Shown one piece after another: positions 11,601 to 55,084 of a stretch of DNA of 64,000 bases (positions within the stretch are counted from its first letter, which is position 1; every line of letters starts with the position of its first letter). This DNA is from Burkholderiales bacterium (GTDB taxonomy: Bacteria > Pseudomonadota > Gammaproteobacteria > Burkholderiales > Eutrophovitaceae). A program made the position numbers and the translations under genes. The notes under the pieces were generated by a model that saw only the letters and a list, made by a program, of their open reading frames with translations, was not told where the DNA came from and searched no databases. Location of the stretch: positions 37,818 to 101,817 of the forward strand of contig DATMAN010000101.1 in assembly GCA_035560005.1 (NCBI GenBank), written 5' to 3'.

Positions 11601-11711
11601 GACAGTCTACATCCGGTTCGTGTGCGCAATACCCCTGCGACCCAAAAAAAAGCGGCACCTCCGAGGACGGTGCCGCCGTGCTCCAATGCTGCTGGCCACC
11701 AGTACGCCGCG

Positions 11712-30785: not shown

Positions 30786-30804
30786 CACAATGAGAATGAG
30801 TGTC
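30786..30804. promoter_or_regulatory. Fur-box-like site upstream of bfd
   Basis: CACAATGAGAATGAGTGTC matches the 19-bp Fur consensus GATAATGATAATCATTATC at 12/19 positions (hand count). It lies about 25 nt upstream of the bfd ATG. Confidence 0.55.
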
Positions 30805-31108
30805 AATTGCTGATTCGATCTGAAAACACCCGCCGCACTTCATCGATCAGACGACTGGCTGATCGACGACAAGCCAGGATGCGCAGACCTTGGGCCTGAG
30901 CCTGAGCCCGATAGCTGCGCATCACGTTGTGATTCAAAAAATCCGTAAACAGGATCAGCAGTTGGGCATTGGAGGGCAACCTCGCGATCCGGCGCTGGTG
31001 GGCAGATGCCCGTCCGCTGACGTGATGTACGATCCGAATTCCCAATGTTTCAAGCAGTTCCGGGATATTCCCCAGACGGTCGGCACCGACCACGATGCAG
31101 TTCATCAT
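30803..31108 (-). CDS. DUF2325 domain protein
   Basis: 101 aa with the pattern IVGGxxxxG...hhhFTDFhxHxh...A typical of DUF2325 (family recalled from memory). Divergent from a TonB-dependent receptor. Confidence 0.6.
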   Translation of the reverse strand: MMNCIVVGADRLGNIPELLETLGIRIVHHVSGRASAHQRRIARLPSNAQLLILFTDFLNHNVMRSYRAQAQAQGLRILACRRSASRLIDEVRRVFSDRISN

Positions 31109-31140
31109 GTCTCCATTCCGCGCTTTATTGGCATGCAGAT

Positions 31141-31159
31141 GATAATGAGTCTCATTTCT
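31141..31159. promoter_or_regulatory. Fur-box-like site in the divergent DUF2325/receptor promoter region
   Basis: GATAATGAGTCTCATTTCT matches the Fur consensus at 13/19 positions (hand count). Confidence 0.65.
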
Positions 31160-31174: not shown

Positions 31175-31186
31175 GGTTAACGAAAT

Positions 31187-31205
31187 GCATATTATTCTCA
31201 TTCGC
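31187..31205. promoter_or_regulatory. Second Fur-box-like site upstream of the TonB-dependent receptor
   Basis: The reverse complement GCGAATGAGAATAATATGC matches the Fur consensus at 12/19 positions (hand count). It lies 27 nt upstream of ATG 31232. Confidence 0.55.
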
Positions 31206-33454: not shown

Positions 33455-33473
33455 CAAAATGATTATGATTCGC
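33455..33473. promoter_or_regulatory. Fur-box-like site upstream of the cytochrome c-FTR1 gene
   Basis: CAAAATGATTATGATTCGC matches the Fur consensus at 13/19 positions (hand count). It lies 28 nt upstream of ATG 33501. Confidence 0.6.
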
Positions 33474-33500
33474 GTTACTTGATGCAGACGATGGGCCGGC

Positions 33501-40091: not shown

Positions 40092-42371
40092 ATGCATCCG
40101 CCAATCCGGCATGTCGTGCTTGCGATCGCCTTATTGCGAGCACTGGCTGCCGCAGCACAGAATCCCGCCACCGAGCTGGAGGCTCCGACGATCGAAGTGA
40201 TCGGTACCACGCCTCTCCCCGGCTTGGGCACGCCGGTCAATCAGGTGCCGGCTAACGTTCAGGCCGCGACCGGCAACGACATTCGAGCGCAGGCGACGGC
40301 CAACCTCGGGGAGTACCTCGACAACAACCTGGGGAGCGTCACCGTCAACCACGGCCAGAACAACCCCTTCCAGCCTGACGTGAATTTCCGGGGACTTTCG
40401 GCCTCGCCCTTGCTCGGCACGCCGCAAGGGGTGTCGGTGTTCATGGATGGGGTGCGCATCAACGAGCCGTTCGGTGACGTCGTGAACTGGGACCTTGTGC
40501 CGCAGAACGCGATCTCCACCATCAACCTCATTCCGGGCTCCAATCCGGTCTTCGGCCTGAACACGCTGGGCGCAGCACTCGCGATCAACACCAAGTCCGG
40601 CTTTCAGTATCCCGGAGGATCCATCTCGGCCCAGGCCGGTTCCTGGGGGCGCAGGGTCGGCGAGTTCGAGTACGGCGGCCACGGCGACAAGAACGACTGG
40701 TTCCTTGCCGGCACATGGTTCGACGAGGATGGCTGGCGCGACTTCTCGCCCAGTGAAGTCCGGCAGCTGTTCACCAAAGCAGGACGCGAAGAGGCGGACA
40801 CGGATTTCGACGTCAGCCTGATGCTCGCGGACAATGACCTGCAGGGAACACAAGCCTTGCCGCTGTCATTCCTCGGCAACCGCGAGCAGGCGTACACCTG
40901 GCCGGACCGGAATCAGAACGAGCTGCTGTTCCTCAACGGCAGGGCCAGTCATTTCATCGCGGAGGACCGTCTCCTCGCCGGCAATCTGTACATTCGCCGT
41001 TACAAGAACGAGAACTTCAGCAGCAACGTCAACGATGATTGCGAGGAAATCGTCGGCAACTGCGCGATCGGAATCCTCAGCGGTGGCGCCGATCCGCAAG
41101 CCATCAACGACCTCAGTGAGATCAGAACAAAGGGGCTCGGTGGCTCCCTGCAGATGACCTTCCTCGACGAGCTGGCCGGCCGCAAGAATCAGCTCACGGT
41201 TGGGATCAGCGCAGATCTCGGCGATACCACCTTCACCCAGTTCGAGGAGGAGGCCGATTTCACCACCGACCGGGGAACGGTGGGAAGCGGGGTCTTCACG
41301 CTGGAAACCGACGTCCAGACCAAGAACGGCTACTACGGAATCTATCTCACCGATACAGTATCGCTGAGCGATCAACTGTCGCTCACCGTTTCCGGACGAT
41401 ACAACTATGCCAGGGTCAGGATCGAGGATCGGACAGGAACCGAACCGCAGCTCAACGGGGACCACAAGTTCACACGCTTCAATCCAGCGGTGGGTTTGAA
41501 CTTGAATCCGTCGCCGACGCTGACCGCGTACGTTGCCTACAGCGAGGGCATGCGCGCGCCGACTCCCGTGGAGCTGACCTGCGCAGACCCCAATGCACCG
41601 TGCCGGCTACCGAACAATTTCCTCGCCGACCCTCCGCTCGAAAAGGTCGTGTCCAAAACCATGGAAGCGGGCGCAAGAGGCAGGCTTTCTCCGGATATCG
41701 GCTGGAGTCTTGCCGTCTACAACACGGATCTGGTCGACGACATTCAGTTCATCAGTGCCGCTGGCGCGGGCGTCAACGCGGGCTTCTTCGACAACGTGGG
41801 CAAGACTCGTCGCCGTGGAGCGGAGTTGGGAGCCTTCGCGACGCTGGGTTCGCTAAGGCTCGTGGCGAGCTACGCCTATCTGAGAGCGACTTTCGAGAGC
41901 GCGTTCGCGATTGCCAACGAAGTCAATTCCTCTGCGGTCGATACCGACGGCGATACCGAGCCCGATACGATCTTCGTGAATCCCGGAGACCGGATCCCGG
42001 GGTTTCCCGATCACGCGTTGAAGCTGCGCGTCGAATACGGGCTGTCTGAAAAGTTCGTGCTGGGCGCAAATCTCCATTACTTCAGCGCCCAGTTCGCGCG
42101 CGGGGACGAAAACAACCAGGACGCCAACGGCAAGATCCCCGGCTACACGCTGGTCAACCTTGACGCACGCTATCAGGCCGCCCGGCGGCTGCAGATCTTC
42201 GCCCGTGTGCAGAATCTGTTCGACAAAGAGTACGAAACGCTCGGCGTGCTGGGAGAGAATTTCTTCGTCAGCGGCACCTTCGATGCATCAAACGTGCAGC
42301 CCGAGCAGTTTCGTTCGGTCGGCGCGCCGCGCGCCGTCTGGGCAGGGCTCAGGTACCAGTTCGCGAATTGA
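40092..42371 (+). CDS. TonB-dependent outer-membrane receptor (substrate unknown)
   Basis: ATG 40092 follows an AGGGAGGAA SD. Signal peptide, TonB box TIEVIG, plug motifs (NFRGLSASPLLGTPQGVSVFMDGVRINEPFG) and a C-terminal ending LRYQF. Confidence 0.88.
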   Translation: MHPPIRHVVLAIALLRALAAAAQNPATELEAPTIEVIGTTPLPGLGTPVNQVPANVQAATGNDIRAQATANLGEYLDNNLGSVTVNHGQNNPFQPDVNFRGLSASPLLGTPQGVSVFMDGVRINEPFGDVVNWDLVPQNAISTINLIPGSNPVFGLNTLGAALAINTKSGFQYPGGSISAQAGSWGRRVGEFEYGGHGDKNDWFLAGTWFDEDGWRDFSPSEVRQLFTKAGREEADTDFDVSLMLADNDLQGTQALPLSFLGNREQAYTWPDRNQNELLFLNGRASHFIAEDRLLAGNLYIRRYKNENFSSNVNDDCEEIVGNCAIGILSGGADPQAINDLSEIRTKGLGGSLQMTFLDELAGRKNQLTVGISADLGDTTFTQFEEEADFTTDRGTVGSGVFTLETDVQTKNGYYGIYLTDTVSLSDQLSLTVSGRYNYARVRIEDRTGTEPQLNGDHKFTRFNPAVGLNLNPSPTLTAYVAYSEGMRAPTPVELTCADPNAPCRLPNNFLADPPLEKVVSKTMEAGARGRLSPDIGWSLAVYNTDLVDDIQFISAAGAGVNAGFFDNVGKTRRRGAELGAFATLGSLRLVASYAYLRATFESAFAIANEVNSSAVDTDGDTEPDTIFVNPGDRIPGFPDHALKLRVEYGLSEKFVLGANLHYFSAQFARGDENNQDANGKIPGYTLVNLDARYQAARRLQIFARVQNLFDKEYETLGVLGENFFVSGTFDASNVQPEQFRSVGAPRAVWAGLRYQFAN

Positions 42372-42424: not shown

Positions 42425-44596
42425 TCAGAATGTGTAGCTGGCGGACAGTCCAAGCATGTAATTGCGCCCGGGTGCGGGCTCGTAATAGCGCCGGTTCGAT
42501 TCGTTGACGATGACCGAACCGACATACTCTTCGTCCAGCAGATTATCGATCCTCACGAACTGCGTCAGCCTCCAGCCGCCAGTGCGCTGTTCGAAACCGG
42601 CGCGCCAGTTGAAAATCGTATAGCTGTCCGCTGATTCGTCGTTAAGATCATTGGTGAACACTTCGTCTACCCACCGTCCCTCGATCGCTGTGGAAAAACC
42701 GCTCTCGGCATGCCGCCAGCGGACCTCCGCAAACGCGGTACTCTGCGGAATGCCCGGGATGCGATTGCCGGCGGGAACGGTTGCATTGGGGCCAGCCACC
42801 GAAGTGCAGAATCCAACACACGTTCCGAAGCTCGTGTCGAATTCGGCTTTGATGTACGTGTAGTTGGCGGCGGCCGAGAACCCGGCGGCAAGCTCGGAAT
42901 CCATCGCGATTTCGAAGCCTTGACGGGTCGTGCTCTCCACGTTCTGGAACACCGATCTGCCGCCCGAGTTGCTGAATACGACGATCTCGTTGTCGGTGTC
43001 GATCCTGAACAAGGCTGCGTTCAGGCGGGTGGCGTCGCCGATCAGCGCTTTCGCTCCTATCTCGAGATTGGTGCTCTCCGCCGGCTTGAGGTCGAAGTTG
43101 AACCCGTTGACCGTGGCGGAAGTCGACCGGTAGGCCAGCTCGGCGAAAGTCGGCGTCTCGAAACCCTTCCCGGCGTTGGCATAGACGTTGAGCGTGGGCG
43201 TCACTTTCAGGATCAGACCCGCGACCGGCGTGGTGTCGCGGAACTCGATGTTGCCGCTGTCGTCGCCGTTTGTGCCAGTGATGAAGAAATCCTCGGTCTT
43301 GAACTTCACGGAGGTGTGCCGAATGCCTGCATGAATGCTCCAGCGGTCGGTCAGATCGAGTTGAGTCTGCAGGAACTGATCGAAGTTGAAGACCGTGTTG
43401 TCCTCGTTGCGCACGAGCGCGCCGATGTTCCCGGCGTTATTGTCGAAAGCCCTGCGTGTTTCCTTCATTCGGTCGTAGTTCAGGCCCGCGGTAACCGCCA
43501 ACGCCATCCCTCCCACGGACATCCGGCGAGTCCATCGCCCGTCGACACCACCGAAGTCCCGATCGAGGTCAATCACCCCTCGGGGAGTGATGGAGAGAAA
43601 CTGCTGAACCGTCCGCTTGCCCGAATAGGCGAGCAGTCTGATGGAATCCTGTTCGCCGAGCCTGTGCTGCAATACCGTTCCTGCCTGCAGGTTTTCGATG
43701 CTCTTGCGGGTGTTCTGAGTCTCTGCATTGGTGCCAGCCTGGTCGCGATCCTGGGCCAGCTGCGTCTTGTCCAGACCGAGCGGGTCCTGGGTTTCGGGCT
43801 GGTTCAAGTAGTTCGTCACCAAGGTAATCTTCGTATCATCGCTTACGTCCAGACGCAGCTTTCCGTTGACCGTGTCGCGACGAGCAGCGCTGTGATCGCG
43901 GAAACCTTCTGTGGCGAAGCGCGCAGCCTCGATGACGTAGTTCACCAGCCCCATCTGCCCGCCCGCCTTCAGTCCCATGCGACTGGAGTCGAAGCTTCCG
44001 AACCACGCGGAACCGGTCAGCGTGTGTCGCTGGGGTCCATCCTCCGTGAACACGTTGATGACACCACCAGACGAATTCCCGTACAACGCAGAAAAAGGCC
44101 CGCGCATGACCTCCACGCTTCTGGCGGAGCTCAGGTCGATGTTCGCCGCCTGTCCCTGCCCGTCCGGCATCGTGAGAGGAATTCCGTCGGAGATTATCCT
44201 GATGCCCCGTACGCCGAAGGTCGAACGCGCGCCGAAGCCGCGGATCGAGATCTGCAGATCCTGGGCGTAGTTCTGGCGATTGTTGGCGACCACGCCGGGA
44301 GCCTTCACGAGTACTTCGGACAGATTGACTTGCGGCTGCTGTTCCTGGATCTGTTGCTGGCCGAAGGCGTCGACCGACACCGGCAAGTCGAAGGCGGACT
44401 GTTCGATGCGCGTCGGCGTTACCACGATCGGCGCAGTGCGCAGGGAATCCTCGGCCGTCTGTTGGGCAACCGCTGGGCATGGCGCGAGGCTGGCGGCAAT
44501 CAGCGCGATGAATACAGGACCACCGATCGATGCGGCTGACAGGTGACGAGCGGAGCCGCGCTTGGCGCGGCTTCCCTTCTGGTTGGCGGGGCTCAT
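42425..44596 (-). CDS. TonB-dependent receptor, YncD/PqqU-like (candidate PQQ receptor)
   Basis: ATG 44596, signal peptide and TonB box PIVVTPTR. The plug NRQNYAQDLQISIRGFGARSTFGVRGIRIISDGIPLTMPDGQGQ and the C-terminus EYVGSVIVNESNRRYYEPAPGRNYMLGLSASYTF resemble the YncD subfamily. The subfamily call is from memory and unverified. Confidence 0.85.
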   Translation of the reverse strand: MSPANQKGSRAKRGSARHLSAASIGGPVFIALIAASLAPCPAVAQQTAEDSLRTAPIVVTPTRIEQSAFDLPVSVDAFGQQQIQEQQPQVNLSEVLVKAPGVVANNRQNYAQDLQISIRGFGARSTFGVRGIRIISDGIPLTMPDGQGQAANIDLSSARSVEVMRGPFSALYGNSSGGVINVFTEDGPQRHTLTGSAWFGSFDSSRMGLKAGGQMGLVNYVIEAARFATEGFRDHSAARRDTVNGKLRLDVSDDTKITLVTNYLNQPETQDPLGLDKTQLAQDRDQAGTNAETQNTRKSIENLQAGTVLQHRLGEQDSIRLLAYSGKRTVQQFLSITPRGVIDLDRDFGGVDGRWTRRMSVGGMALAVTAGLNYDRMKETRRAFDNNAGNIGALVRNEDNTVFNFDQFLQTQLDLTDRWSIHAGIRHTSVKFKTEDFFITGTNGDDSGNIEFRDTTPVAGLILKVTPTLNVYANAGKGFETPTFAELAYRSTSATVNGFNFDLKPAESTNLEIGAKALIGDATRLNAALFRIDTDNEIVVFSNSGGRSVFQNVESTTRQGFEIAMDSELAAGFSAAANYTYIKAEFDTSFGTCVGFCTSVAGPNATVPAGNRIPGIPQSTAFAEVRWRHAESGFSTAIEGRWVDEVFTNDLNDESADSYTIFNWRAGFEQRTGGWRLTQFVRIDNLLDEEYVGSVIVNESNRRYYEPAPGRNYMLGLSASYTF

Positions 44597-44717
44597 GTTC
44601 TCTTTCTTTCTGCTTGGTTCGGGTCTTCGTTCTGAAACGCCCGGGGACTGCGCCCCGGCGGGCGGGCCCACTTCAAGTCCGGCTCGGGCGGCGGCGCTGC
44701 ATCCGGCCCGGGCCGCC

Positions 44718-44750
44718 AAAAAAAAAGGCTGCTCGAAAGCAGCCTTTTTC
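44718..44750 (-). terminator. Stem-loop with flanking A- and T-runs after pqqA-2 (bidirectional terminator/attenuator shape)
   Basis: AAAAAAAAA-GGCTGCT-cgaa-AGCAGCC-TTTTT. On the minus strand it lies 13 nt after the pqqA-2 stop. Confidence 0.75.
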
Positions 44751-44763
44751 TGAGTACAGAAGC

Positions 44764-44835
44764 TTAGCGGTTGGCGATATACATCGTGACTTCAAAGCCA
44801 AAACGCATTTCGCTGTATTCGGGTTTGGTCCACAT
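44764..44835 (-). CDS. pqqA: Coenzyme PQQ precursor peptide PqqA (second, inverted copy)
   Basis: Hand translation [23 protein letters not shown] has the PqqA E-x3-Y signature. A GAGAGGAG SD lies upstream. Too short for the ORF track. Confidence 0.88.
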   Translation of the reverse strand: MWTKPEYSEMRFGFEVTMYIANR

Positions 44836-44944
44836 GGCAAAGCTCCTCTCTCAAGAATTCGTCGGGAAGGCTGCCTCCGCAGCCGTCGGAACCTATTCTG
44901 TGAGTCCGGGCCGGCCCGAGCCACAGCAAAAGATTGAAATGCGC

Positions 44945-44961
44945 CTCATGATTTTCATTAG
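44945..44961. promoter_or_regulatory. Near-perfect 7-3-7 palindrome CTCATGA-ttt-TCATTAG upstream of pqqA-2
   Basis: 13/14 arm positions are symmetric. The same motif occurs upstream of pqqA-1, and the flanking GCGCATTT/GGCATTT is also shared. Confidence 0.5.
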
Positions 44962-44997
44962 TTTGACTCGCCGTCCGGCAACCATATCTCAAAAAAA

Positions 44998-45642
44998 TCA
45001 TGGGTCTATAAGACCTTCCCGCATTGCGATGATGGCCAGTTCCGCCGAGTTGGACGCGCCGAGCTTCTGCTTGATGTTGTAGAGGTGGGTGCCGACCGTG
45101 CGGGGGCTCAACGACATCACCTCCGCGATCTCCTGCACCGACTGGCCCCTGGCCAGCGCCAGAAAGACCTTGAACTCCTTCTCGCTGAGCGTGTCGAGCG
45201 GGTTGCGGTTCTTGGACAGCTGCTGAACCGCCAGTTGCTGCGCGATCTCGGGCTCCAGGAAAGTCTTGCCCTGATGGACCTGGCGGATCGCCTGGATCAG
45301 CGCTTCGGGCGCGCTGCGCTTTGTGAGATAGCCGGCCGCGCCCGCTTTCAGGACGCGCCTCGCGTGCATCGCGTCTTCGTGCGCGGAGAGAACCAGAATT
45401 CTCGCGGCCGCATCCTTGGCCAGGATGCGGTCGATAGCCTCCAGACCACCAATGCCCGGCATCGAAATGTCCATCACGGTCACGTCCGGCTTCGCCTCGG
45501 TGAAACGGCGAACCGCCTCCTCACCGCTTTCCGCTTCGGCGACGACCCTGATGTCCGACGACCCTTCCAGCAGCAGGCGAAATCCCATTCTCACCACTGC
45601 ATGGTCGTCCACGAGCATCACGTTGATGGTTGCGCCGGTCAT
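44998..45642 (-). CDS. NarL/FixJ-family response regulator (REC + LuxR-type HTH)
   Basis: VMLVDDH...DVTVMDISMPG receiver motifs with a C-terminal GerE HTH (LSEKEFKVFLALARGQSVQEIAEVMSLSPRTVGTHLYNIKQKLG). Confidence 0.9.
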   Translation of the reverse strand: MTGATINVMLVDDHAVVRMGFRLLLEGSSDIRVVAEAESGEEAVRRFTEAKPDVTVMDISMPGIGGLEAIDRILAKDAAARILVLSAHEDAMHARRVLKAGAAGYLTKRSAPEALIQAIRQVHQGKTFLEPEIAQQLAVQQLSKNRNPLDTLSEKEFKVFLALARGQSVQEIAEVMSLSPRTVGTHLYNIKQKLGASNSAELAIIAMREGLIDP

Positions 45643-47399
45643 TCATTCACCTCTGCCCGTTCGGGCGCGGCGCGCGAAGCCAGCGGAATCACCGCTCGAA
45701 CGCTCACACCCTTCCCGGGCTCGCCGCAGACTTCCAGCCTGCCCCCGAGCCCCTGCACCCTCTCCCTCATGCCGATCAGGCCGAATCGGGTGGCTTCCAG
45801 CTCGTTGCGTTGCGACAGGCCCTTGCCGTTGTCGCTCACCGTGACGCTCACCGCATCCTGGCCGGATTCCTCGGTCTCGCGCTTCACCGTGATCTCGGCG
45901 CGCGTGGCCTGCGCATGCCGCACGATATTGGTCAGGCACTCCTGCACCATTCTGTAGACGGTGATGTTGACCGATTCGTCGAGCGCGTCGAGTTCCCCGC
46001 TCATGTGCAGCTCGCAATCGATCTCCGGGTGGCGTTCGCGCCAGTTGGCCACCGCCGCGCGCAGCGTATCTCCCAAGCCCAAATGGTCCAGGGTGCTTGG
46101 CCGCAACTGCCGGATCATGCCGTGGACCACATCGTAGATGTGGCTCGCCACCGACACGATCGTGCGGGCGTTGGCATGGGTTTCAGGAGAGTCCCCCGTC
46201 CGGTTCGCGATGGCGGTGCCGATGGTCTTGATCGCCGTGACGCACTGGCCGAGTTCGTCATGCAGCTCGCGCGCGATGCTGCGGCGCTCCTCCTCGATGC
46301 GCGCCTGGATGATCTGGGTAAGTCTGCGGTTGTGCTCCAGCTCGCGCTCCGCCGCCTGCATCCGCTTGTGCTCGGTGATGTCGCGCAGCGCACAGATCTC
46401 GCCGATGACTGCATCGGAACCGGGATCGATCAGCGGTGCGGCGGACAACGCGACGTCGATCAGGCGTCCAGTCTTGGTCATGCGCTGGGTTTCGAAGTTC
46501 TCGACGCGCTCCCGGCGCCGGATCACAGCCAGATTTTCCGCGATCTCGTTCTCCAGGCCCGGCGGCGTCAGCAGCGTGGCGGAGCGTCCCAGGATCTCAT
46601 CCGCGGAGTACTCGAAGAGCTGCGCCGCGGCGGCATTCCAGAACGACACTCGTCCCTCGAGGTCGTGGATCATGATCGCGTCGCTCGCCTGCTGCGCGAC
46701 CAGGGCGAGCCGGCGGTTCTCGTCCATCGCTTCCTCCAACGCGGCGGCCATGCGGTTGAAGGTGTGGCTGATGGATGCGAATTCGGGAAGCGTGTAGTCG
46801 GGCAGCCGCACGTCGAAGCGTCCGCGTTCCATTTCCGACAGGCCGCCGAGAATCGAGCGCAGCGGCCGCAGCGAACGTCCCAGGAGCCAGAACACCAGGG
46901 CATTGAGCAGCACGAAGAAGCCCAGCACGATCCAGAGAAAGTTCTTCGTGTCGTCCCACGCATCGAGGATCGACCGGGATGCGTCGGGCGTGATCACCAC
47001 GGTGCCGCCCGGCAGGTTGAGGCGAAACTCGTCGAGCTTCGGTCCGACCAGCCTTGCGAACCAGTCGGGCGCCCAGCGTCCGGCCTTGTAGATCGGAGGC
47101 GGCGACTCGTAGATCAATCTGTCGTGCTCGTCGTAGAGCCGGATCTCGTTGGCCCGCACCCGGCCGACGTGCCGCAGGAACGCGAGCAACGCCTGGTTGC
47201 GCGATTCGGCCGTCTCACGGTGAACTCCGGCAATGACCGTCTCCATGAGCTGCACGGTCACCCGGGTTCCCGCCTCCATCTCCTCTCGGATCGAGCGGCG
47301 CATGTCTTGCAGGACCACGTGTCCGGCGCCCACGGTGAAGGCGATCATCACCAGCGTGATCACCAGGTTGATGCGAAAACGCAGGCTCATGCGCTTCAT
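45639..47399 (-). CDS. Sensor histidine kinase (2 TM, periplasmic domain, HAMP, PAS, HisKA_3, HATPase_c)
   Basis: H-box RSIARELHDELGQ, plus a PAS segment and N/G boxes. ATG 47399 (MKRMSLRFRINLV...) overlaps the pip stop, and its own stop overlaps the regulator start (ATGA). Confidence 0.88.
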   Translation of the reverse strand: MKRMSLRFRINLVITLVMIAFTVGAGHVVLQDMRRSIREEMEAGTRVTVQLMETVIAGVHRETAESRNQALLAFLRHVGRVRANEIRLYDEHDRLIYESPPPIYKAGRWAPDWFARLVGPKLDEFRLNLPGGTVVITPDASRSILDAWDDTKNFLWIVLGFFVLLNALVFWLLGRSLRPLRSILGGLSEMERGRFDVRLPDYTLPEFASISHTFNRMAAALEEAMDENRRLALVAQQASDAIMIHDLEGRVSFWNAAAAQLFEYSADEILGRSATLLTPPGLENEIAENLAVIRRRERVENFETQRMTKTGRLIDVALSAAPLIDPGSDAVIGEICALRDITEHKRMQAAERELEHNRRLTQIIQARIEEERRSIARELHDELGQCVTAIKTIGTAIANRTGDSPETHANARTIVSVASHIYDVVHGMIRQLRPSTLDHLGLGDTLRAAVANWRERHPEIDCELHMSGELDALDESVNITVYRMVQECLTNIVRHAQATRAEITVKRETEESGQDAVSVTVSDNGKGLSQRNELEATRFGLIGMRERVQGLGGRLEVCGEPGKGVSVRAVIPLASRAAPERAEVNE

Positions 47400-48376
47400 C
47401 GGCGGACCCGCCCGCGCATGTCGTCCGTGGCGCGACGCAATGCACCGGCGATCAAAGGATCCAGCGCCGAGTGTCCGCCGTTCTCGACCATCCTGAGCTC
47501 GGCGTTCGGCAGCCGTCGCGCCAGCTCGGCCGCCGCAAGGGGAGGACACACCATGTCCAGCCGCCCCTGGACGAGGATGGCCGGCACATCACCCACTCTC
47601 CAGGCACGCTCCAGCAGCTCGTTGTCGCGAAGGAAGCAACCGTTGGCCAGGAAGTGCAGCTGAATGCGCGCGCGATGCAGCGCGTCCGCAGCGCCGGAAG
47701 CCGAAGGCATCGGTGCACTGCCGCTGCCCAGGCGCATGACCGCCTCTTCGTAGCCGACCCAAGCCTGGGCTGCGCGGGTGTGTGTTTGCATGTCGGGATG
47801 ATTGACCAGAGCATGATACCGCGCGAGCAACCCCTCGCTGCACTCCGCGGTCGCGGTCAGCAGCCGCCGGGCGCAGGGGACGAACCTTCGCAGTCCGTCG
47901 ACGTACCACCGTATTTCCGTCTCGGTTCCCAGAAAAACGCCGCGCAGCACCAGGCCGGCGACACGCTCGGGATGGGTCTCAGCGTAGGCGAGCGCCAGCG
48001 TAGCGCCCCATGAACCACCGAACAGCAGCCACCTTTGCACGCCCAGATGAATCCGCAACCGCTCGATATCCGCCACCAAGTGCCAGGTCGTGTTCTGCTC
48101 GGTGCATCCCGCAGGCAGCGATTGACCGCAGCCGCGCTGATCGAACAGCACGATCCGGTAGAAGGCGGGATCGAAGTACTGGCGCTGATGGGGACGGATA
48201 TGGCTTCCGGGACCACCGTGCAGGAAGAGGACGGGAAATCCTTCCCGATTGCCGCATTGCTCGACATGAAGCGAATGCAAAGCATCGACCGCCAGGCGCT
48301 CGATGCGATAAGGCTCCAGGGGCGGATACAGCGCGCTTTGCTGCTCGGTACCAGCCACGGGGCTGGAGGGAATCAC
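47396..48376 (-). CDS. pip: Proline iminopeptidase (prolyl aminopeptidase, S33 alpha/beta hydrolase)
   Basis: LYPPLEPY, VEQCGN..G.PVLFLHGGPG and nucleophile elbow GGSWGATLALAY are canonical Pip motifs. Confidence 0.88.
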   Translation of the reverse strand: MIPSSPVAGTEQQSALYPPLEPYRIERLAVDALHSLHVEQCGNREGFPVLFLHGGPGSHIRPHQRQYFDPAFYRIVLFDQRGCGQSLPAGCTEQNTTWHLVADIERLRIHLGVQRWLLFGGSWGATLALAYAETHPERVAGLVLRGVFLGTETEIRWYVDGLRRFVPCARRLLTATAECSEGLLARYHALVNHPDMQTHTRAAQAWVGYEEAVMRLGSGSAPMPSASGAADALHRARIQLHFLANGCFLRDNELLERAWRVGDVPAILVQGRLDMVCPPLAAAELARRLPNAELRMVENGGHSALDPLIAGALRRATDDMRGRVRR

Positions 48377-49761
48377 GAATCCTGGAGGCGAAAGACGATC
48401 GGCACCGTGACGGTGAGCTCCCGACCGCGCAGCCCTTCCGGGGCCTGCGGGAGCGGAGTGGCCCGACGCACCATTTCCATCGCCTCTCTGTCCAGCACCT
48501 CACGACCGGAACTCTTGGCGAGCGCGATCTCGGTCACCCTTCCGTCTGCCGCGATTCTCAACTGAACTTCCGTGGTGCCCTCCCAACCGCGGCGCTGGGC
48601 GATGACCGGGTACTTCTGATAGCGCTTGATCTGGGTGGACAGTTGCTGGCTGTACGCCACCGTCAATTCGCGCGGGATCGATCGAGACGGCACTGCCTTC
48701 GGTACCGGCGGCGCAGGGGCCGGGACGACGGGTCCTGGTCTGGGCGCAGGAGGCGAGACCGTCGGCAGGGTCGGCGTTGCCGGAACGGGCGACGACAGCG
48801 TCGGCTCCGCCGTCCGCGGGCGCACAACGGGCATCGGCGCCGGGAGGGTGGGGGGTGTGGCAGCGGCGACGTTCACCGCTGGCGGAGCAGGCCGCTCGAT
48901 GCTCGGCTCCACGCGCGCCGGCAACTGAGACAGCGGCTGCGGTTCGGACCGCGTGGCGAGCGGCGCGAGGCGGGGCGCGGGCTGCGCCGGCGGTTGTACG
49001 ACCGGGGTGACGTTGACCGCCGGCGGAGCAGGCCGCTCGATGCTCGGCTCCACGCGGGGGGGCAACTGCGCAACGGGCCGCGGTTCGGTCCGCTCCACGG
49101 CCGGCGCCGGCCGTGGAGCCGGTTGAGGTGGTGCCAAGTCGCGGACGACAGGTGCCACCGGCTGCGGCTGTGGGTCGACTCGCGCCGTAGGCTGGGCAAC
49201 CGGGGGAGGCTCGAGCCGAGCGCCCGGAGGCGGCGGAAGGACAGCCGCCGGCGCTGGAGGGATGGGCTGGGGCTGCTCAGGCAGGGCGACGCGCTGTTCC
49301 GGTTGAGGTTCGGGGCGAGCGCTGACGAGGGGCTCGGGCGACGGTGGTACTGCACGCGGAGGTGACGGGGTCAGCTCGGCCCGAGTCGGGGCCGGCAGCT
49401 CTGGGTCAGGCGGCGCAAGCACGGGCTGCGGCTGCTCGATCACGGGCTCCGGACGCGAAATCAGCGGTTCGATCGGGCGCGGCTCAGGCGCAACGACGGC
49501 TGGCTGTCTGAGCGGCTCGGGAACCGGTTGCGGCGCTGGCCGCTGCTCCCGCCGCACGGGTTGCTCCCGGGGGATCAGCTCGACGCTCAGGACCTTCGGG
49601 GGCGGCTCGATGCGGACCGAGCGGAACCCGGGGACCACAGCGATCAGCAGCGCGTGGATCAGGACGGAGGCAGCTAGCGCGACCTGGAACGGTCGCTCCC
49701 GATACCACTGGCCAAACGGATCGGGGAGAAACAAGCCCCTGTCGAGCGCCACGTCAGACAT
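48373..49761 (-). CDS. tonB: TonB-family energy transducer with unusually long proline-rich spacer
   Basis: N-terminal TM helix (VALAASVLIHALLIAVVP), a ~330-aa Pro-rich region, and a C-terminal TonB_C domain (YPVIAQRRGWEGTTEVQLRIAADGRV...). ATG 49761 is preferred over the track's TTG 49779. Confidence 0.85.
   Translation of the reverse strand: MSDVALDRGLFLPDPFGQWYRERPFQVALAASVLIHALLIAVVPGFRSVRIEPPPKVLSVELIPREQPVRREQRPAPQPVPEPLRQPAVVAPEPRPIEPLISRPEPVIEQPQPVLAPPDPELPAPTRAELTPSPPRAVPPSPEPLVSARPEPQPEQRVALPEQPQPIPPAPAAVLPPPPGARLEPPPVAQPTARVDPQPQPVAPVVRDLAPPQPAPRPAPAVERTEPRPVAQLPPRVEPSIERPAPPAVNVTPVVQPPAQPAPRLAPLATRSEPQPLSQLPARVEPSIERPAPPAVNVAAATPPTLPAPMPVVRPRTAEPTLSSPVPATPTLPTVSPPAPRPGPVVPAPAPPVPKAVPSRSIPRELTVAYSQQLSTQIKRYQKYPVIAQRRGWEGTTEVQLRIAADGRVTEIALAKSSGREVLDREAMEMVRRATPLPQAPEGLRGRELTVTVPIVFRLQDS
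48868..49094. repeat. Imperfect tandem duplication (141-nt period) inside the tonB spacer
   Basis: An identical 35-nt core GGCGGAGCAGGCCGCTCGATGCTCGGCTCCACGCG occurs at 48881..48915 and 49022..49056. It encodes RVEPSIERPAPPAVNV twice. Confidence 0.85.
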
Positions 49762-49811
49762 GTGACTCAGCCTATGCAAGCCTTTGACGTGAGTAAAGTT
49801 TCGCGGCGAAA

Positions 49812-49828
49812 CTCATGAAAATCATGAG
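49812..49828. promoter_or_regulatory. Perfect 7-3-7 palindrome CTCATGA-aaa-TCATGAG upstream of pqqA-1
   Basis: Read directly from the sequence. It lies in the divergent tonB/pqqA-1 intergenic region, 160 nt upstream of ATG 49988. Confidence 0.55.
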
Positions 49829-49987
49829 AGGCATTTGGTGATTTTTCTGTGGGAGAAGCTTCGTTCTTTTTTTGAGAATGCCGTCGGAGCTTTCCGCGGG
49901 GGAAACTGTCTATCGCCTCGGTGGCTCTGCGGCGAGCGATCGCCGCTCGGAGAAGTCGAATGTTAATTCAACTTTCTGGAGACGCCT

Positions 49988-50059
49988 ATGTGGACCAAAC
50001 CCGAGTACAGCGAAATGCGCTTTGGCTTTGAAGTCACGATGTACATCGCCAACCGCTGA
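49988..50059 (+). CDS. pqqA: Coenzyme PQQ precursor peptide PqqA
   Basis: Hand translation [30 protein letters not shown] lies upstream, and the gene sits immediately upstream of pqqBCDE. Too short for the ORF track. Confidence 0.93.
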
Positions 50060-50078
50060 TCGCGGGCGGGTAAACCGA

Positions 50079-50108
50079 CGAAAGCCCCTGTAGGGGCTTT
50101 CGTTTTTT
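50079..50108 (+). terminator. pqqA-pqqB intergenic stem-loop (attenuator/terminator)
   Basis: CGAAAGCCCC-tgta-GGGGCTTTCG followed by TTTTTT, 22 nt before the pqqB ATG. Confidence 0.8.
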
Positions 50109-50130
50109 CACCACGCCGCCGACAACAGTC

Positions 50131-51045
50131 ATGAGAATAGGAGTGCTCGGCTCAGCCGCCGGTGGGGGATTCCCCCAGTGGAACTGCAATTGCCGCAACT
50201 GCGATGGGGTCCGCAAGGGAACGATCCGCGCCCGGCCGCGCACGCAATCGTCGATCGTCCTTTCCGCCGACTCCGTCAACTGGGTGCTGTTCAACGCTTC
50301 CCCGGACCTGCTGTACCAGTTCCGCAGCTTTCCGCAGCTGCAGCCTGGACGGGCGATACGGGATACGGCAGTGCGCTCGATCGTTCTGATGGACGCGCAG
50401 ATCGACCACACCACCGGGCTGCTGATGCTGCGCGAAGGCAAGCCGCTGGAGATCTACTGCACGGACATGGCGCGCGAAGACCTCACCAGCGGCAATCCGC
50501 TGTTCAATATCCTTCAGCACTATTGCGGCGTAAACTGGCATCAGATTCCGACCTATCCGGGCAACCGTTTCGCGGTGCTGGGCGCCGAGGAGCTGTACTT
50601 CACGGCCGTGCCTCTGAAAAGCAAGGCACCGCCCTACTCCCCTCACCGCGACAACCCGCACGAGGGAGACAACATCGGCATGCGCATCTTGGACCCGCGC
50701 ACCGGAAAGGTGCTGTTCTACGCGCCGGGCCTGGGCGAAATCGAGCCGCATCTCCAGCCGTTCCTCGAGGAAGCCGACTGCCTGATGGTGGACGGGACGT
50801 TCTGGACCGACGACGAGATGATCCGGCTGGGCATTTCCGGCAAGCGCGCACGCGACATCGGACATCTTCCGCAATCGGGCCCCGGCGGCATGATCGAGGT
50901 GCTGCGCCCGCTCAAGGCGGAGCGCAAGATCCTGATCCACATCAACAACACCAATCCCATCCTGGACGAGGATTCGCAGGAGCGCCGTCAGCTCGAGGCG
51001 GCCGGAATCGAGGTTGCGTGGGATGGCATGGAAGTGGTTCTCTAG
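50131..51045 (+). CDS. pqqB: PQQ biosynthesis protein PqqB (MBL-fold)
   Basis: [24 protein letters not shown] is the canonical PqqB N-terminus. 304 aa. Confidence 0.95.
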
Positions 51046-51074
51046 ATTTTCCGAAAGTCTGCAACGGAGCGATT

Positions 51075-51794
51075 ATGGGTGCCGCAGAGCAACTGCCTTG
51101 GAGCCGGGACGAGTTCGAACAGCAACTGCGCGCAAAAGGCAAGCGCTACCACATCTATCACCCGTTTCATATCGCCATGAACAGCGGGCAATGCACTCGC
51201 GAGCAGGTGCAGGGCTGGGTGTACAACCGCTTCTACTACCAGATCAGCATTCCGATCAAGGACGCGGCGATCCTGTCCAACATGCCGGACCGGGAGCAGC
51301 GCCGGCAGTGGATCCAGCGCATCATCGATCACGACGGCACCGAGGGCGAGGAAGGCGGCATCGAGGCGTGGCTGCGGCTCGGGGAAGCCTGCGGCTTGAA
51401 ACGCGAGGATGTGACGTCCTTGCGCTACGTACTCCCAGGCGTGCGCTTCGCTGTGGATGCCTACGTGAACTTCGCGCGGCGGGCGCCGTGGCAGGAAGCG
51501 GTGTGCTCTTCGCTCACCGAGCTGTTTGCTCCGGAAATCCACCAGAAGCGGCTCGATAACTGGCCGCAGCACTATCCCTGGATCGAAGCGGAAGGTTATG
51601 CGTACTTCCGCAAGCGGCTCTCCGAGGCGCGGCGCGACGTGGAGCACGGACTGCAGGTCACGCTCGACTATTTCCGGACGCGGCGCGATCAGGAACGCGC
51701 GCTCGATATCCTGCAGTTCAAACTGGATGTATTGTGGACGATGCTCGACGCCATGCAGATCGCCTATGGCATCGGGCCCGCGCAACGCCAATGA
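51075..51794 (+). CDS. pqqC: Pyrroloquinoline-quinone synthase PqqC
   Basis: YHIYHPFH...[10 protein letters not shown]...RIIDHDG are canonical PqqC motifs. ATG 51075 is internal to the artefactual track ORF 50178..51794. Confidence 0.95.
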
Positions 51795-52072
51795 GTGTCA
51801 TCAGCGAAGACATGGTGCCCGTGCTGGCAAGGCACTACCGCTTCCAGTTCGAACCGGCGCAGCAAGCCTACGTCCTTCTCTACCCGGAAGGCATGGTCAA
51901 GCTCGGTGCCAGCGCGGGCGAAATCATGAAGCGGGTGAATGGCACTGCGACCGTCTCGAGCATCATCGCCGACCTGCAGGCGGCCTATCCGGGCGTCGAC
52001 CTGAGGGCCGACGTCATCGATTTCCTGGAGCATGCACATGGAAAAGGCTGGATCCACGCCAAACGGCCCTAA
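51791..52072 (+). CDS. pqqD: PQQ biosynthesis peptide chaperone PqqD
   Basis: 93 aa with a PqqD fold sequence ([37 protein letters not shown]). ATG 51791 overlaps the pqqC stop (ATGA). Confidence 0.92.
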
Positions 52073-53201
52073 GCCGCCGCTGTGGCTGCTGGCGGAACTG
52101 ACGTACCGCTGCCCGCTGCATTGCGTGTTCTGCTACAACCCGGTCGACTACGCGACCTACGGCACCGAACTGTCCACCGAGGACTGGATGCGCGTGCTCA
52201 GGCAAGGCCGCGAGCTGGGCGCGACGCAGCTTGGCTTCTCCGGCGGTGAACCGTTGATGCGCGACGACCTGGAAGCGCTGGTCGCCGAGGCGCGCAAGCT
52301 CGGCTACTACTCCAACCTCATCACCTCGGGAGTGGGCCTGAACGAAAAGCGCATCGCAGCTTTCAAGGAAGGCGGGCTCGATCACATCCAGGTCTCGTTC
52401 CAGGATTCCACCCGCGAGATGAACGACTTCCTGTCCAGCACCCGCACCTTCGAGCTGAAGCAGCGGGTCGCCAGACTGGTCAAGCGGTACGACTACCCGA
52501 TGGTGCTCAACGTCGTGCTGCACCGGCTCAACATCGACCACGTGCAGCAGATCCTGGAGATGGCCGAGCAGCTCGAAGCGGAGTACGTCGAACTCGCCAA
52601 CACGCAGTACTACGGCTGGGCGTACGTCAACCGCGACCAGCTGCTGCCCAGCCGGGAACAGTTGCAGCGCGCCGAGGAGGTGACCAACCGGTTTCGCGAA
52701 CGCGTCGGAAACAAGATGAAGATCTACTTCGTCGTGCCCGACTATTACGAAAACCGGCCCAAGGCGTGCATGAACGGCTGGGGCGCCGTGTTTCTGACCG
52801 TGACCGCAGACGGCTTGGCGCTTCCCTGCCACGAGGCCCGAATGCTGCCGGGGCTGAGTTTCCCGAATGTCCGCGAACACGATCTGCGCTGGATCTGGTA
52901 CGACTCGCCCGGATTCAACGTCTACCGTGGAGACGGCTGGATGAAGGAGCCCTGCCGCAGCTGTCCGGAAAAGGTGAAGGACTTCGGCGGCTGCAGATGT
53001 CAGGCGTATTTGCTCACCGGAGATGCCGCCAACGCCGATCCGGTCTGCGACAAATCGCCTTTCCATGGACTGGTCACCCAGGCGGTGCAGCGCGCCCAGA
53101 AGCCGGCCCCCGCGGTGTCTGTAAAACCGGTCATTCTGTATCGAGACGACAAGAACTCACGCAGCCTCGCCGGCCGCAAGGACAACGCTCCGGTCGCATG
53201 A
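52032..53201 (+). CDS. pqqE: PqqA peptide cyclase PqqE (radical SAM/SPASM)
   Basis: PLWLLAELTYRCPLHCVFCYNP radical-SAM motif and C-terminal SPASM cysteines (CRSCPEKVKDFGGCRCQAY). The start may be 52032 or 52038. Confidence 0.95.
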   Translation: MHMEKAGSTPNGPKPPLWLLAELTYRCPLHCVFCYNPVDYATYGTELSTEDWMRVLRQGRELGATQLGFSGGEPLMRDDLEALVAEARKLGYYSNLITSGVGLNEKRIAAFKEGGLDHIQVSFQDSTREMNDFLSSTRTFELKQRVARLVKRYDYPMVLNVVLHRLNIDHVQQILEMAEQLEAEYVELANTQYYGWAYVNRDQLLPSREQLQRAEEVTNRFRERVGNKMKIYFVVPDYYENRPKACMNGWGAVFLTVTADGLALPCHEARMLPGLSFPNVREHDLRWIWYDSPGFNVYRGDGWMKEPCRSCPEKVKDFGGCRCQAYLLTGDAANADPVCDKSPFHGLVTQAVQRAQKPAPAVSVKPVILYRDDKNSRSLAGRKDNAPVA

Positions 53202-54145
53202 ATGCGCCTCAGCCCGTCGACACGCGCGCCGCGATCCGCGCCCAAGGTCTGACCAAGCGCTACGGCGAGCTGCTCGCGGTAGACGGGCTCGACCTGGATA
53301 TTCCCTCGGGCCAGTTCTTCGGCCTGCTCGGTCCGAACGGCTCCGGCAAGACGACCACCATCCACATGCTCGCCACGCTGATCCGGCCCACACGCGGCAC
53401 GGCACAGGTTGCGGACTTCGACGTGGTGCGCCAGGCAACGCGCGCGCGCGAGGCCATCGGGCTGGTCTTCCAGGAATCTGCGCTGGATCGCACGCTCACC
53501 GTCGCCGAGAACCTGCGCTTCGCCGGATTCCTTCAAAACCTGCCGGCGCGCATCATCGCGGAGCGCAGCCGCGAGCTGCTCGAGCTGTTTGGTCTGGGTG
53601 AACGGCGCGACAGCCCCGTTGCCGCCTTGTCGGGTGGCATGCGCCGTGCGCTCGACATCGTGCGCGGCGTGCTGCACGAGCCCAGGATCCTGTTTCTGGA
53701 CGAACCGACCATCGGGCTCGATCTGCCCAACCGGCGCAGGATCTGGCGCTTCATCGAGCGCCTGCGCGCCCGCACCGGCATGACGGTTCTGCTCACCACT
53801 CACTACCTGGAAGAAGCCGATGGCTGCGATCGCGTGGCCTTCATCCGCGCCGGGAAACTGGTGGAGACCGGCGCGCCGTCCGAACTGGTCCAGCGCCTCG
53901 GCAGTCGCATCGTGGAGGTCGAGGCGCAGGATCTGGAAGCGCTCATGGGTTTCCTGGAACCCAGGCTCGGCCCGGGGCTGCGCGACGGGGAAATCGCCAT
54001 GTTTCGCTGCCGGGAGCAGGAGCTCCACGCGCTCGCCGGGCTGCAGGCCGATATCGGCACCAAAGCCTCGGCGTGGCGGGTGCGGCGCCCGAACCTGAAC
54101 GATGTCTTTCTCTGGGTCGCGGCGGGGAAGGCCTTGGCCCGATGA
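53198..54145 (+). CDS. ABC transporter ATP-binding protein (ABC-2/DrrA-like exporter type)
   Basis: Walker A GPNGSGKTT, signature LSGGMRRAL and Walker B ILFLDEPTIGLD. ATG 53198 overlaps the pqqE stop (ATGA). Confidence 0.9.
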   Translation: MNAPQPVDTRAAIRAQGLTKRYGELLAVDGLDLDIPSGQFFGLLGPNGSGKTTTIHMLATLIRPTRGTAQVADFDVVRQATRAREAIGLVFQESALDRTLTVAENLRFAGFLQNLPARIIAERSRELLELFGLGERRDSPVAALSGGMRRALDIVRGVLHEPRILFLDEPTIGLDLPNRRRIWRFIERLRARTGMTVLLTTHYLEEADGCDRVAFIRAGKLVETGAPSELVQRLGSRIVEVEAQDLEALMGFLEPRLGPGLRDGEIAMFRCREQELHALAGLQADIGTKASAWRVRRPNLNDVFLWVAAGKALAR

Positions 54146-54933
54146 AACTGCGGCCGGTATACGCCGTCCTCGAGCGCGAGGTCGTGCGCATGTTTCGCCA
54201 GCGGGGGCGGCTGCTGTCCGCCATGGTGCGTCCCTTGATCTGGCTGTTCGTGATCGGCGCCGGTTTCGGAGCGATCATGGATCAGGCGCGCGGAGTGCCG
54301 TATCAGTACTTTCTGGTCCCAGGGGTGCTGGGCATGACCATGTTGTTCGGCGCCATGCTTGCTGCGCTGACGACGGTCTACGACAAGGAATCCGGAGTGA
54401 TGAGAATGATGATCGTCGCGCCGCTGCCCCACGCGTGGATCGTGATCGCGAAACTGCTTTCCGCGGCGCTCGCCGGAATCGTCCAGGCGTTGCTGCTGCT
54501 CGTCGTGCTCGCGCTGCTCGGCTATCTCGAGCCCCGGACCGACTGGATTCTGCTTTCGGTCGCGCTGGTGACGACCTCGCTGGCGTGCGGAGGCATCGGC
54601 ATGCTGACCGCCTCGTTCACCCGCACGCTGGACAACTTCGCGGCAATCATGAACTTCGTGATCTTCCCGGTGTTCTTTCTGAGCGGTTCGCTCTACCCGG
54701 TGCACGATCTGCCGCAGGCGCTGCGCTGGATCGCCACCCTCAACCCCTATACCTACGGTGTCGATCTTCTGAAGCACGCCACCCTGCCGCGCGTGGCCGA
54801 CTTCGGCGCAGGATTCGATCTTGCCGTGCTGGCGGGCTTCACGCTGGCTGCGCTGGCAGCCGCGAGCTGGCGCTTCTCGCAGGAGTCGGCCTACGAGCCG
54901 ATGATCCACGTGCTCGCCGGCAGGCGCGGCTAG
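54142..54933 (+). CDS. ABC-2 type transporter permease
   Basis: 263 aa with six predicted TM helices and an ABC-2 membrane-domain pattern. ATG 54142 overlaps the ATPase stop (ATGA). Confidence 0.85.
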   Translation: MKLRPVYAVLEREVVRMFRQRGRLLSAMVRPLIWLFVIGAGFGAIMDQARGVPYQYFLVPGVLGMTMLFGAMLAALTTVYDKESGVMRMMIVAPLPHAWIVIAKLLSAALAGIVQALLLLVVLALLGYLEPRTDWILLSVALVTTSLACGGIGMLTASFTRTLDNFAAIMNFVIFPVFFLSGSLYPVHDLPQALRWIATLNPYTYGVDLLKHATLPRVADFGAGFDLAVLAGFTLAALAAASWRFSQESAYEPMIHVLAGRRG

Positions 54934-55084
54934 CACTCGGCGGGAAAAGAAAGACCGGAAGGCAGGACACGGCGGGGACGCCAACGCGCCAGGAGCCGCT
55001 TTCGTGACGTTCCTGGCGAACTTGACGCGCGATCCGCTTTTGAGGGTTTTTTGATTTCCCCCTTGTGCAGGAACAAGGGGCGAT

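Follow-up and report, generated by a model that had tools for sequence, protein, structure and literature searches.

A conserved palindromic box upstream of pqqA and a neighboring NarL/LuxR-type regulator as its predicted binder

Two boxes upstream of two pqqA copies

The window analyzed here, i.e., a stretch of 64,000 nucleotides (nt) from a Burkholderiales bacterium (family Eutrophovitaceae; assembly GCA_035560005.1, contig DATMAN010000101.1, positions 37,818 to 101,817), carries two copies of pqqA, the gene for the precursor peptide of pyrroloquinoline quinone (PQQ). The two peptides are identical, and the coding DNA differs by four synonymous changes (94% identity). Upstream of each copy lies a 17-bp sequence of the form 7-3-7, which we call the pqqA box. 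Box 1 is located in a divergent region, with a tonB-like operon on one side and pqqA-1 on the other, while box 2 sits between the stop codon of a response regulator gene and pqqA-2. An original prediction, made from the letters of the window, had proposed the two palindromes as a common operator, and both sequences were found, by reading the window directly, where it had placed them. The features of the two upstream regions are as follows; third half-sites and promoter elements are predicted.

49812..49828, no strand assigned: pqqA box 1, perfect 7-3-7 palindrome CTCATGA-AAA-TCATGAG (half-sites 1 and 2), CTCATGAAAATCATGAG
49835..49841, plus strand: third half-site of copy 1, degenerate TTGGTGA (consensus TTCATGA, box positions 24-30), with the T-tract next to it
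49850..49855, plus strand: putative weak -35 of copy 1, TGGGAG, 17-18 bp before the -10-like hexamer
49874..49879, plus strand: putative -10 hexamer of copy 1, GAGAAT; predicted start site at ~49886
49988..50059, plus strand: pqqA-1, PQQ precursor peptide, 23 amino acids (aa)
44945..44961, minus strand: pqqA box 2, CTAATGA-AAA-TCATGAG, one arm mismatch, CTAATGAAAATCATGAG
44932..44938, minus strand: third half-site of copy 2, degenerate TTCAATC
44918..44923, minus strand: putative weak -35 of copy 2, TGGCTC
44895..44900, minus strand: putative -10 hexamer of copy 2, CAGAAT; predicted start site at ~44888
44764..44835, minus strand: pqqA-2, peptide identical to that of pqqA-1

Chance is excluded as the source of the match between the two boxes. 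When both upstream regions were shuffled 2,000 times, the best shared 17-mer never came down to one mismatch or fewer (0/2000), the value observed being 1; the minimum across these shuffles was two mismatches, reached in three of them. For the motif searched over the whole 64-kb window with up to three mismatches, 0.05 matches were expected, and a total of four was found in no shuffle. A degenerate third match, CTCAAAAAAATCATGGG at 44988-45004 (+), has three mismatches and overlaps both the stop codon of the regulator gene and the 11-mer described below. It holds one good CATGATTTT half-site and is not kept in related loci.

The similarity extends beyond the palindrome. The downstream flank reads A-GGCATTTGG (aGGCATTTgg) after box 1 and GCGCATTTC (GCGCATTTc) after box 2, and the 17-mer with its GCATTT had been taken for the only non-coding similarity between the two regions. 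This was too narrow, since both regions also share AAA before the box, T24-T25, a T-tract at +31 to +34, TGTGG at +38 to +42 and a -10-like (G/C)AGAAT at +62/63. A second shared string had been noted as well. It does exist, as the 11-mer TTTTTTTGAGA at 49867-49877 (+) and 44997-44987 (-), i.e., 1 to 2 nt away from the ranges first given for it. In copy 1 it overlaps the predicted -10, and in copy 2 it corresponds to the T-run right after the regulator stop codon, beside a small terminator-like hairpin. The string is absent from related loci, and for that reason we leave it out of the element.

Conservation and promoter layout of the box

A PqqB-based scan with one genome per species gave 80 loci, and 76 pqqA upstream regions from these related genomes were scored. 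With a box called at 11 or more matches over the 14 arm positions, it was present in 41 of the 76. The groups with a box before pqqA are the Burkholderiales, Rhodocyclales, Methylophilaceae and some Gammaproteobacteria; carriers include Methylovorus, Methylotenera, Methylophilus, Dechloromonas, Noviherbaspirillum, Aromatoleum, Thauera, Polaromonas and Ferrovum, and further Pseudohongiella, Sulfurifustis and a metagenome-assembled genome (MAG) of the Pseudomonadales. The Methylococcales pqqA upstream regions of the same scan had no box, nor did the Paraburkholderia, Burkholderia, Ralstonia and Variovorax pqq clusters found in a plasmid collection. The arrangement of two pqqA copies with a hydrolase-kinase-regulator operon recurs in seven loci (L001, L002, L004, L006, L007, L009 and L013). 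All of them have the box before both copies (7/7), and the position of box 2 is kept too. The proposal of a common operator thus holds up well: the box stays with both copies in every related two-copy locus and precedes pqqA across several betaproteobacterial orders and in some Gammaproteobacteria, at a constant distance from a -10-like hexamer.

All 41 sites have A4, G6, A7, T11, C12 and A16, and in every site each of positions 8-10 is A or T, in either orientation. By-eye comparison with the consensuses for sigma-54, FNR/CRP, PhoB, IHF and NsrR-type sites gave misfits in spacing or bases, and these candidates were set aside.

An unbiased scan of metagenome contigs for exact matches to CTCATGAWWWTCATGAG returned 120 loci. 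A recognizable pqqA was found within 350 bp in 50 of them, and about six more were located at pqqB, at a frameshifted pqqA, at the kinase gene or immediately ahead of a PqqU-type receptor gene, so that some 56 of the 120 adjoin pqq-related genes. Most of the other matches come from contigs of 30-50% GC, where half are within coding sequence; in one low-GC contig (L099) the 17-mer lies inside a true Firmicute-type terminator. High-GC exceptions stand beside unrelated genes (DUF1800, Ppx, IS91, CopCD and FtsH), and none of them beside iron-uptake genes. We regard it as very likely that the box is a functional, conserved promoter element of some transcription factor.

Two variants of the arrangement deserve a description. 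Locus L208 has tandem pqqA copies, divergent from a kinase-regulator pair, each with its own box (6285-6301, CTAATGAAAATCATTAG, and 6478-6494, CTCATGAAAATCACTAG). In L016, the site before pqqA (11709-11725) is a symmetric variant, CTCCAGA-AAA-TCTGGAG, with four substitutions and a palindrome that is still perfect. No other pqqA region examined has such a variant. The flanking sequence shows homology to the Dechloromonas promoter, and in front of the pqqU-type gene of L016 the left arm is normal. Possible causes are co-evolution with the binding protein, a structural constraint, or a template-switch mutation at a quasi-palindrome.

All sites were aligned ungapped on the palindrome, and the features outside it were not used for site selection. 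Conserved there are T24, T25, a T-tract at 31-34 and G41, with the consensus W-T-T-C-A-T-G-A-T at positions 23-31. Of 91 sites, 33 have a TCATGA-like hexamer (5/6 matches or more) that begins at box position 25, and it is found at no other offset, which is why we describe the operator as tripartite, i.e., an inverted pair plus a third half-site. This third half-site has the orientation of the left arm, lies 23 bp downstream and is weaker than the inverted pair; the final two T's of the GCATTT flank are its beginning. Next comes the putative promoter. A -10-like hexamer, defined by A at position 2, T at position 6 and 4/6 matches or more, begins at box positions 61-63, i.e., 44-46 nt past the box, in 61 of 92 distinct sites. 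The start codon, by contrast, lies anywhere between 78 and 225 nt from the box. A hexamer nAnGAT takes the same place in a second pqqA lineage (peptides ..RFGMEITMY..). G occupies position 41 in 30 of the 41 sites, and this position falls in the -35 (39-44) given a spacing of 17 bp. A promoter scan detected no consensus sigma-70 promoter in the region, which fits a possible dependence on an activator. If transcription starts about 7 nt past the hexamer, the box would span roughly -73 to -57, with its center near -65, and the third half-site about -50 to -44. In the literature we found no mapped pqqA start sites.

The adjacent regulator and the weighing of alternatives

The operon divergent from pqqA-1 contains a two-component system, the regulator gene of which ends next to box 2:

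48373..49761, minus strand: TonB-family protein, opening the divergent operon with an ATG 50 nt away from box 1
47396..48376, minus strand: prolyl-aminopeptidase-type alpha/beta hydrolase of the kinase-regulator operon (TIGR01249, 300.6 bits, above the cutoff of 259.75)
45639..47399, minus strand: sensor histidine kinase
44998..45642, minus strand: response regulator, receiver domain and GerE/LuxR-type helix-turn-helix

The regulator matches Response_reg (8.6e-30) and GerE (1.8e-16), and a protein of identical sequence has an entry under a "Burkholderiales bacterium" MAG. In loci whose upstream flank measures 4 kb or more, the box and this regulator gene occur together: where the box is present the regulator is adjacent in 36 loci and not adjacent in 16, and where the box is absent it is adjacent in none and not adjacent in 25, counts that are not phylogenetically independent. 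Of two cultivable carriers, Noviherbaspirillum sp. ST 5-3 (NZ_CP176528.1, L033) has the regulator next to the box, and Methylovorus sp. MM2 (L025) has a box with no regulator beside it. The pairing recurs in at least four pqqA lineages. In minimal loci, the kinase and regulator alone are divergent from pqqA(BCDE), with the box in between, and the median distance from the box to the start codon of the divergent kinase-regulator operon is 55 nt (30 loci). Such a position would be the usual geometry of a locally acting, autoregulated factor. The recognition helix T[VI]GTHLYN[IV]KQKL (TVGTHLYNIKQKL) is essentially invariant, with the whole regulators 54-100% identical, and a Paraburkholderia regulator behind a box-less pqqBCDE cluster has a different one. 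Burkholderia multivorans (L205, NZ_CP020399.1) has neither the box nor this regulator; its pqqA has instead an adjacent gene for a sigma-54-dependent Fis-family regulator and a sigma-54-type promoter, GGCACG-N4-TTGCT (GGCACGctccTTGCT), at L205 5712-5998. Control by the adjacent NarL-type regulator had been suggested originally, and the co-occurrence of box and gene supports it as probable; the regulator is, in our judgment, the likely binder of the box.

Several observations weigh against this reading, besides the shared ancestry behind the counts. In 16 box loci with good flanks, a NarL-type regulator is missing from the surrounding 10 kb; nine of these loci are Methylophilaceae-like and three are from Rhodocyclales. 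An orthologue in the box-bearing Methylophilaceae was not established by protein searches, the matches of which were mostly close relatives. Same-helix pairs unlinked to pqq genes do exist. In L209/L210 (6654-8639), a LapD_MoxY_N kinase and a same-helix regulator are found far from pqq genes in genomes of 50-52% GC, and on a plasmid of Azoarcus KH32C (L201) an orphan same-helix regulator (56% identical) is located by a PQQ-dependent dehydrogenase, with no box nearby. These pairs (L209/L210, KH32C) could not be assigned to box-bearing genomes, and no box lies within 8 kb of the L209/L210 operon, so that autoregulation, if it occurs, is not universal. The center near -65 is, given the predicted start, half a helical turn off the classical class I positions. 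Finally, the symmetric L016 variant is something that a simple model of sequence readout fails to explain.

The same gaps are what favors a real operator bound by another dedicated factor, encoded elsewhere, with the adjacent two-component system controlling, e.g., TonB/PqqU uptake. The 16 loci without a NarL-type regulator within 10 kb, which include all the Methylophilaceae-like copies, are what this view would predict, and an odd-length 7-3-7 site would stand out among familiar NarL-family sites such as those of 7-2-7, 18 bp and 20 bp. Yet no other regulator gene is conserved beside box-bearing pqqA, and none is evident beside that of the box-bearing Methylophilaceae. Moreover, the box is found in 36/36 regulator loci and the regulator in 0/25 box-less ones, the helix is invariant, and unlinked orthologous kinase-regulator pairs can account for loci that seem to lack the regulator. 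We consider another binder unlikely, although it is the alternative that we take most seriously. Iron control is a different matter. The original prediction had offered iron control as an alternative; as a Fur box, the site would let iron repress pqqA and pqqU through Fur or a Fur-family protein. The center of the box does resemble the Fur box (GATAATGATAATCATTATC): both have an A/T-rich center of the type ATGAnAATCAT and odd-length dyad symmetry, which is typical of the Fur family, and the core ATGA(A/T)AATCAT fits 10-11 of the 11 central positions of the 19-bp consensus. The overall match reaches 12/19 in copy 1, 13/19 in copy 2 and 14/19 in Methylovorus (L025), and the window itself forms an iron island of genes for bacterioferritin, FTR1, an ABC permease, TonB-dependent receptors and TonB. 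Nevertheless, the two boxes of the window match at only 12-13 positions out of 19, and the conserved outer positions C1, C3, G15 and G17, i.e., C/G arms, fall on A/T positions of the Fur consensus. Although the window has at least five iron genes, none of its Fur-like arrays comes within three mismatches of the pqqA box, the iron genes having boxes of a different kind. The high-GC metagenome copies are found at pqq loci, never at iron-uptake genes, and the box is specific to pqq. Nor does its position suit a Fur repressor: the box stops 44-46 nt short of the -10-like hexamer and would lie some 65 bp ahead of the predicted start, far upstream of the core promoter and not over -35/-10. A directional third half-site is present as well. 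The PqqU of Escherichia coli is reportedly not Fur regulated (bioRxiv 10.1101/2022.06.07.495086), and we hold the iron reading to be improbable.

A palindrome may also act as a nucleic acid hairpin, either as a 5'-leader or processing element or as the terminator of the upstream regulator operon. Copy 1 does fold (-8.9 kcal/mol, z = -3.3), box 2 lies directly past the regulator gene, the low-GC contig L099 has the 17-mer within a terminator, and L016 changes both arms symmetrically. Copy 2, on the other hand, folds at -1.5 kcal/mol, no better than shuffled sequences, and no U-run follows the box. The arm changes in the 41 sites break pairing 25 times, against 4 compensated and 3 wobble cases, i.e., it is the sequence and not the pairing that is conserved. 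Spacing is fixed to the -10-like hexamer and not to the ATG or the upstream stop codon, and an Rfam scan of 44000-51000 at permissive thresholds gave no match. A hairpin function seems to us very improbable. Least credible of all is that the boxes are an inert remnant of the duplication of pqqA. The two coding sequences are indeed 94% identical in DNA, but the flanks have otherwise diverged, and box and spacing are kept in both copies, in many genera and in single-copy genomes; the comparative data already contradict this reading.

Gene context and a possible PQQ circuit

The genes and terminators on the far side of each pqqA copy complete the locus:

50077..50110, plus strand: terminator-like hairpin with U-run in the pqqA-1/pqqB gap (-25.4 kcal/mol, z = -3.5)
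50131..53201, plus strand: pqqB (50131-51045), pqqC, pqqD and pqqE (52032-53201)
44717..44748, minus strand: terminator-like hairpin with U-run past pqqA-2 (-20.7 kcal/mol, z = -3.1)
42425..44596, minus strand: putative PqqU-type TonB-dependent PQQ importer, downstream of pqqA-2

Both terminators were missed by a consensus terminator scan and revealed by folding. The importer scored 679 bits with the NCBIfam PqqU model, against 192 for the next family, with the curated cutoff of 1200 not reached, and its only strong PDB matches were YncD (6v81) and the PQQ transporter (9c4o), at ~541 bits. No separate AT-rich promoter region is visible in the gap between pqqA-2 and pqqU. In this PQQ producer, a second precursor gene would thus be linked to a predicted gene for PQQ uptake.

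A second TonB-dependent receptor is encoded at 40093-42371 (+), its real ATG being at 40093 and not at the open reading frame (ORF) start at 39576. A homologue with 47% identity lies beside the hydrolase, the sigma-54 activator and pqqABCDE in B. multivorans (L205), and another (40%) in a tonB-receptor-kinase operon of an Azonexus MAG (L203). From this context, it may also belong to the PQQ system. The hydrolase accompanies pqq clusters in many lineages (B. multivorans L205, Ralstonia L207 and Rhodocyclaceae L019) and is a candidate PqqA-processing peptidase (47396..48376). A tandem-repeat scan of the TonB gene found none. Convergent to pqqE is a 393-aa ORF (53803-54984, -) without Pfam or NCBIfam match, which is syntenic in L001, L002, L005, L009, L012, L013 and L014 (28-53% identity). 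Further to the left is the iron island, with bacterioferritin, a TonB-dependent receptor, an FTR1-cytochrome c permease, an ABC permease and another receptor. Here, Fur-like hexamer arrays of the AATGAGAAT type (30786-30810, 31135-31159, 31181-31205 and 33455-33479) precede a bfd-like gene, the TonB-dependent receptor and the FTR1-cytochrome c permease.

The sensor kinase has two transmembrane segments around a periplasmic domain of ~120 residues, followed by HAMP, PAS, HisKA_3 and HATPase. Its match to LapD_MoxY_N (PF16448) is E = 0.1 and 13 bits, under the cutoff of 25, and 8 of 29 kinase homologues match the family (best E, 3e-8). A PDB sequence search with the sensor domain gave no match. 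The structural model (predicted local distance difference test [pLDDT], 88.7) gave Foldseek matches to CdgS9 (4u64, a LapD orthologue; E = 0.01) and to LapD (3pjv; E = 0.39). Homologue matches and these weak fold matches together would place the kinase with the MoxY/MxaY sensors of PQQ-dependent methanol dehydrogenase genes. Two kinase homologues, L203 (Azonexus, in the tonB-receptor-kinase operon, at a contig end) and L204, had no box in the short sequence available.

The proposed mechanism is as follows. The pqqA box would be the core of a composite operator, made of inverted CTCATGA heptamers with a 3-bp A/T spacer and of a third, TTCATGA-like half-site, with constant spacing to a weak sigma-70-type promoter downstream of it (center at ~-65, third half-site at ~-47). 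The kinase, with its MoxY/LapD-type periplasmic domain, would phosphorylate the LuxR/NarL-type regulator of the adjacent operon, and a regulator dimer would then sit on the box and extend onto the third half-site. The bound regulator would activate (rather than repress, as we infer) two short pqqA transcripts. Each of these would stop at its strong hairpin, with read-through into pqqBCDE from copy 1 and into pqqU from copy 2. The bound protein probably controls the divergent tonB-peptidase-kinase-regulator operon as well, i.e., its own expression, because box 1 lies only ~50 nt from the start codon of that operon. The analysis shows the sequences and how they are conserved, the constant spacing to the -10-like hexamer, the co-occurrence with the regulator gene and the identities of the genes; start sites, activation, the identity of the binder, read-through and autoregulation are what we infer.

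Judging by box location, the regulon would comprise all pqqA copies (including the tandem ones of L208) and pqqU, with pqqBCDE reached through read-through, and probably the divergent tonB-peptidase-kinase-regulator operon. In L139 and L016, the layout of box, 46 nt and -10 is found directly before pqqU-type receptor genes. We tentatively suggest, as a possibility that goes well beyond the promoter element itself, a previously undescribed circuit of PQQ homeostasis. A MoxY-type kinase would sense the periplasmic PQQ status (free PQQ, apo-quinoprotein load or an associated metal), and one regulator with one tripartite operator would coordinate the supply of precursor from every pqqA copy, biosynthesis through pqqBCDE, high-affinity re-uptake through pqqU together with a dedicated TonB, and the expression of the circuit itself. 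This arrangement would be shared across the Betaproteobacteria, the methylotrophic Methylophilaceae with their multi-copy pqqA genes among them.

Parts of this scheme have relatives among known systems. Palindromic activating sites ~65-75 bp before the start are found at rsmY/rsmZ/csrB, in the form of the GacA/UvrY box, and there too the transcripts are short, abundant and self-terminated. The best NCBIfam match of the regulator is UvrY/SirA/GacA (211 bits, under the family cutoff of 280), but the GacA box is TGTAAG-N6-CTTACA, against CTCATGA-N3-TCATGAG here, and GacA targets are non-coding RNAs. The 7-2-7 sites of NarL, a member of the same regulator superfamily, combine inverted heptamer pairs with extra single heptamers; their spacing is 2 and not 3, and the heptamer TACYYMT differs from that of the pqqA box. 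The sigma-54 control in B. multivorans (NZ_CP020399.1) shares with our locus a dedicated regulator gene immediately upstream of pqqA and the same accessory genes beside the cluster (alpha/beta hydrolase and TonB-dependent receptor), and differs in its GGCACG-N4-TTGCT promoter and Fis-family sigma-54 activator, with no box and no NarL-type regulator. LuxR/NarL-type regulators of PQQ-dependent alcohol oxidation are known in Pseudomonas, with EraSR and ErbR/AgmR as examples. PedS2/PedR2, also from Pseudomonas, is like the system described here a HisKA_3 kinase with a REC-GerE regulator tied to quinoprotein and PQQ physiology, and PedR2 is both activator and repressor (PMC6115532). The described targets of this type are dehydrogenase genes, and no operator is mentioned in PMC6115532. 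In methylotrophs, MxaY (MoxY) with MxaB/MoxX shares the LapD/MoxY periplasmic domain in the kinase family and the control of a PQQ-related function, that of the methanol dehydrogenase genes (PMC5018670). Its targets are mxaF/xoxF, and PMC5018670 has no cis element for MxaY/MxaB, whereas here the targets would be a cofactor precursor gene and an importer.

The synteny of pqqU and pqq genes has been noted in four Burkholderiales genomes, without a regulator or an operator (PMC12124388), and in the searchable literature we found no defined operator for pqqA and no mention of the box sequence. Control of PQQ production is little known beyond a few Pseudomonas and Methylobacterium studies. The box makes PQQ regulation directly testable in Rhodocyclales, methylotrophs and the Burkholderiales of soil, and it points to a candidate regulator and sensor. 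It can also serve as a sequence tag for pqqA promoters and unannotated pqqA genes in metagenomes. For the bacteria that carry it, the box would explain the possible co-regulation of extra pqqA copies and would tie PQQ synthesis to the recently discovered PqqU import pathway.

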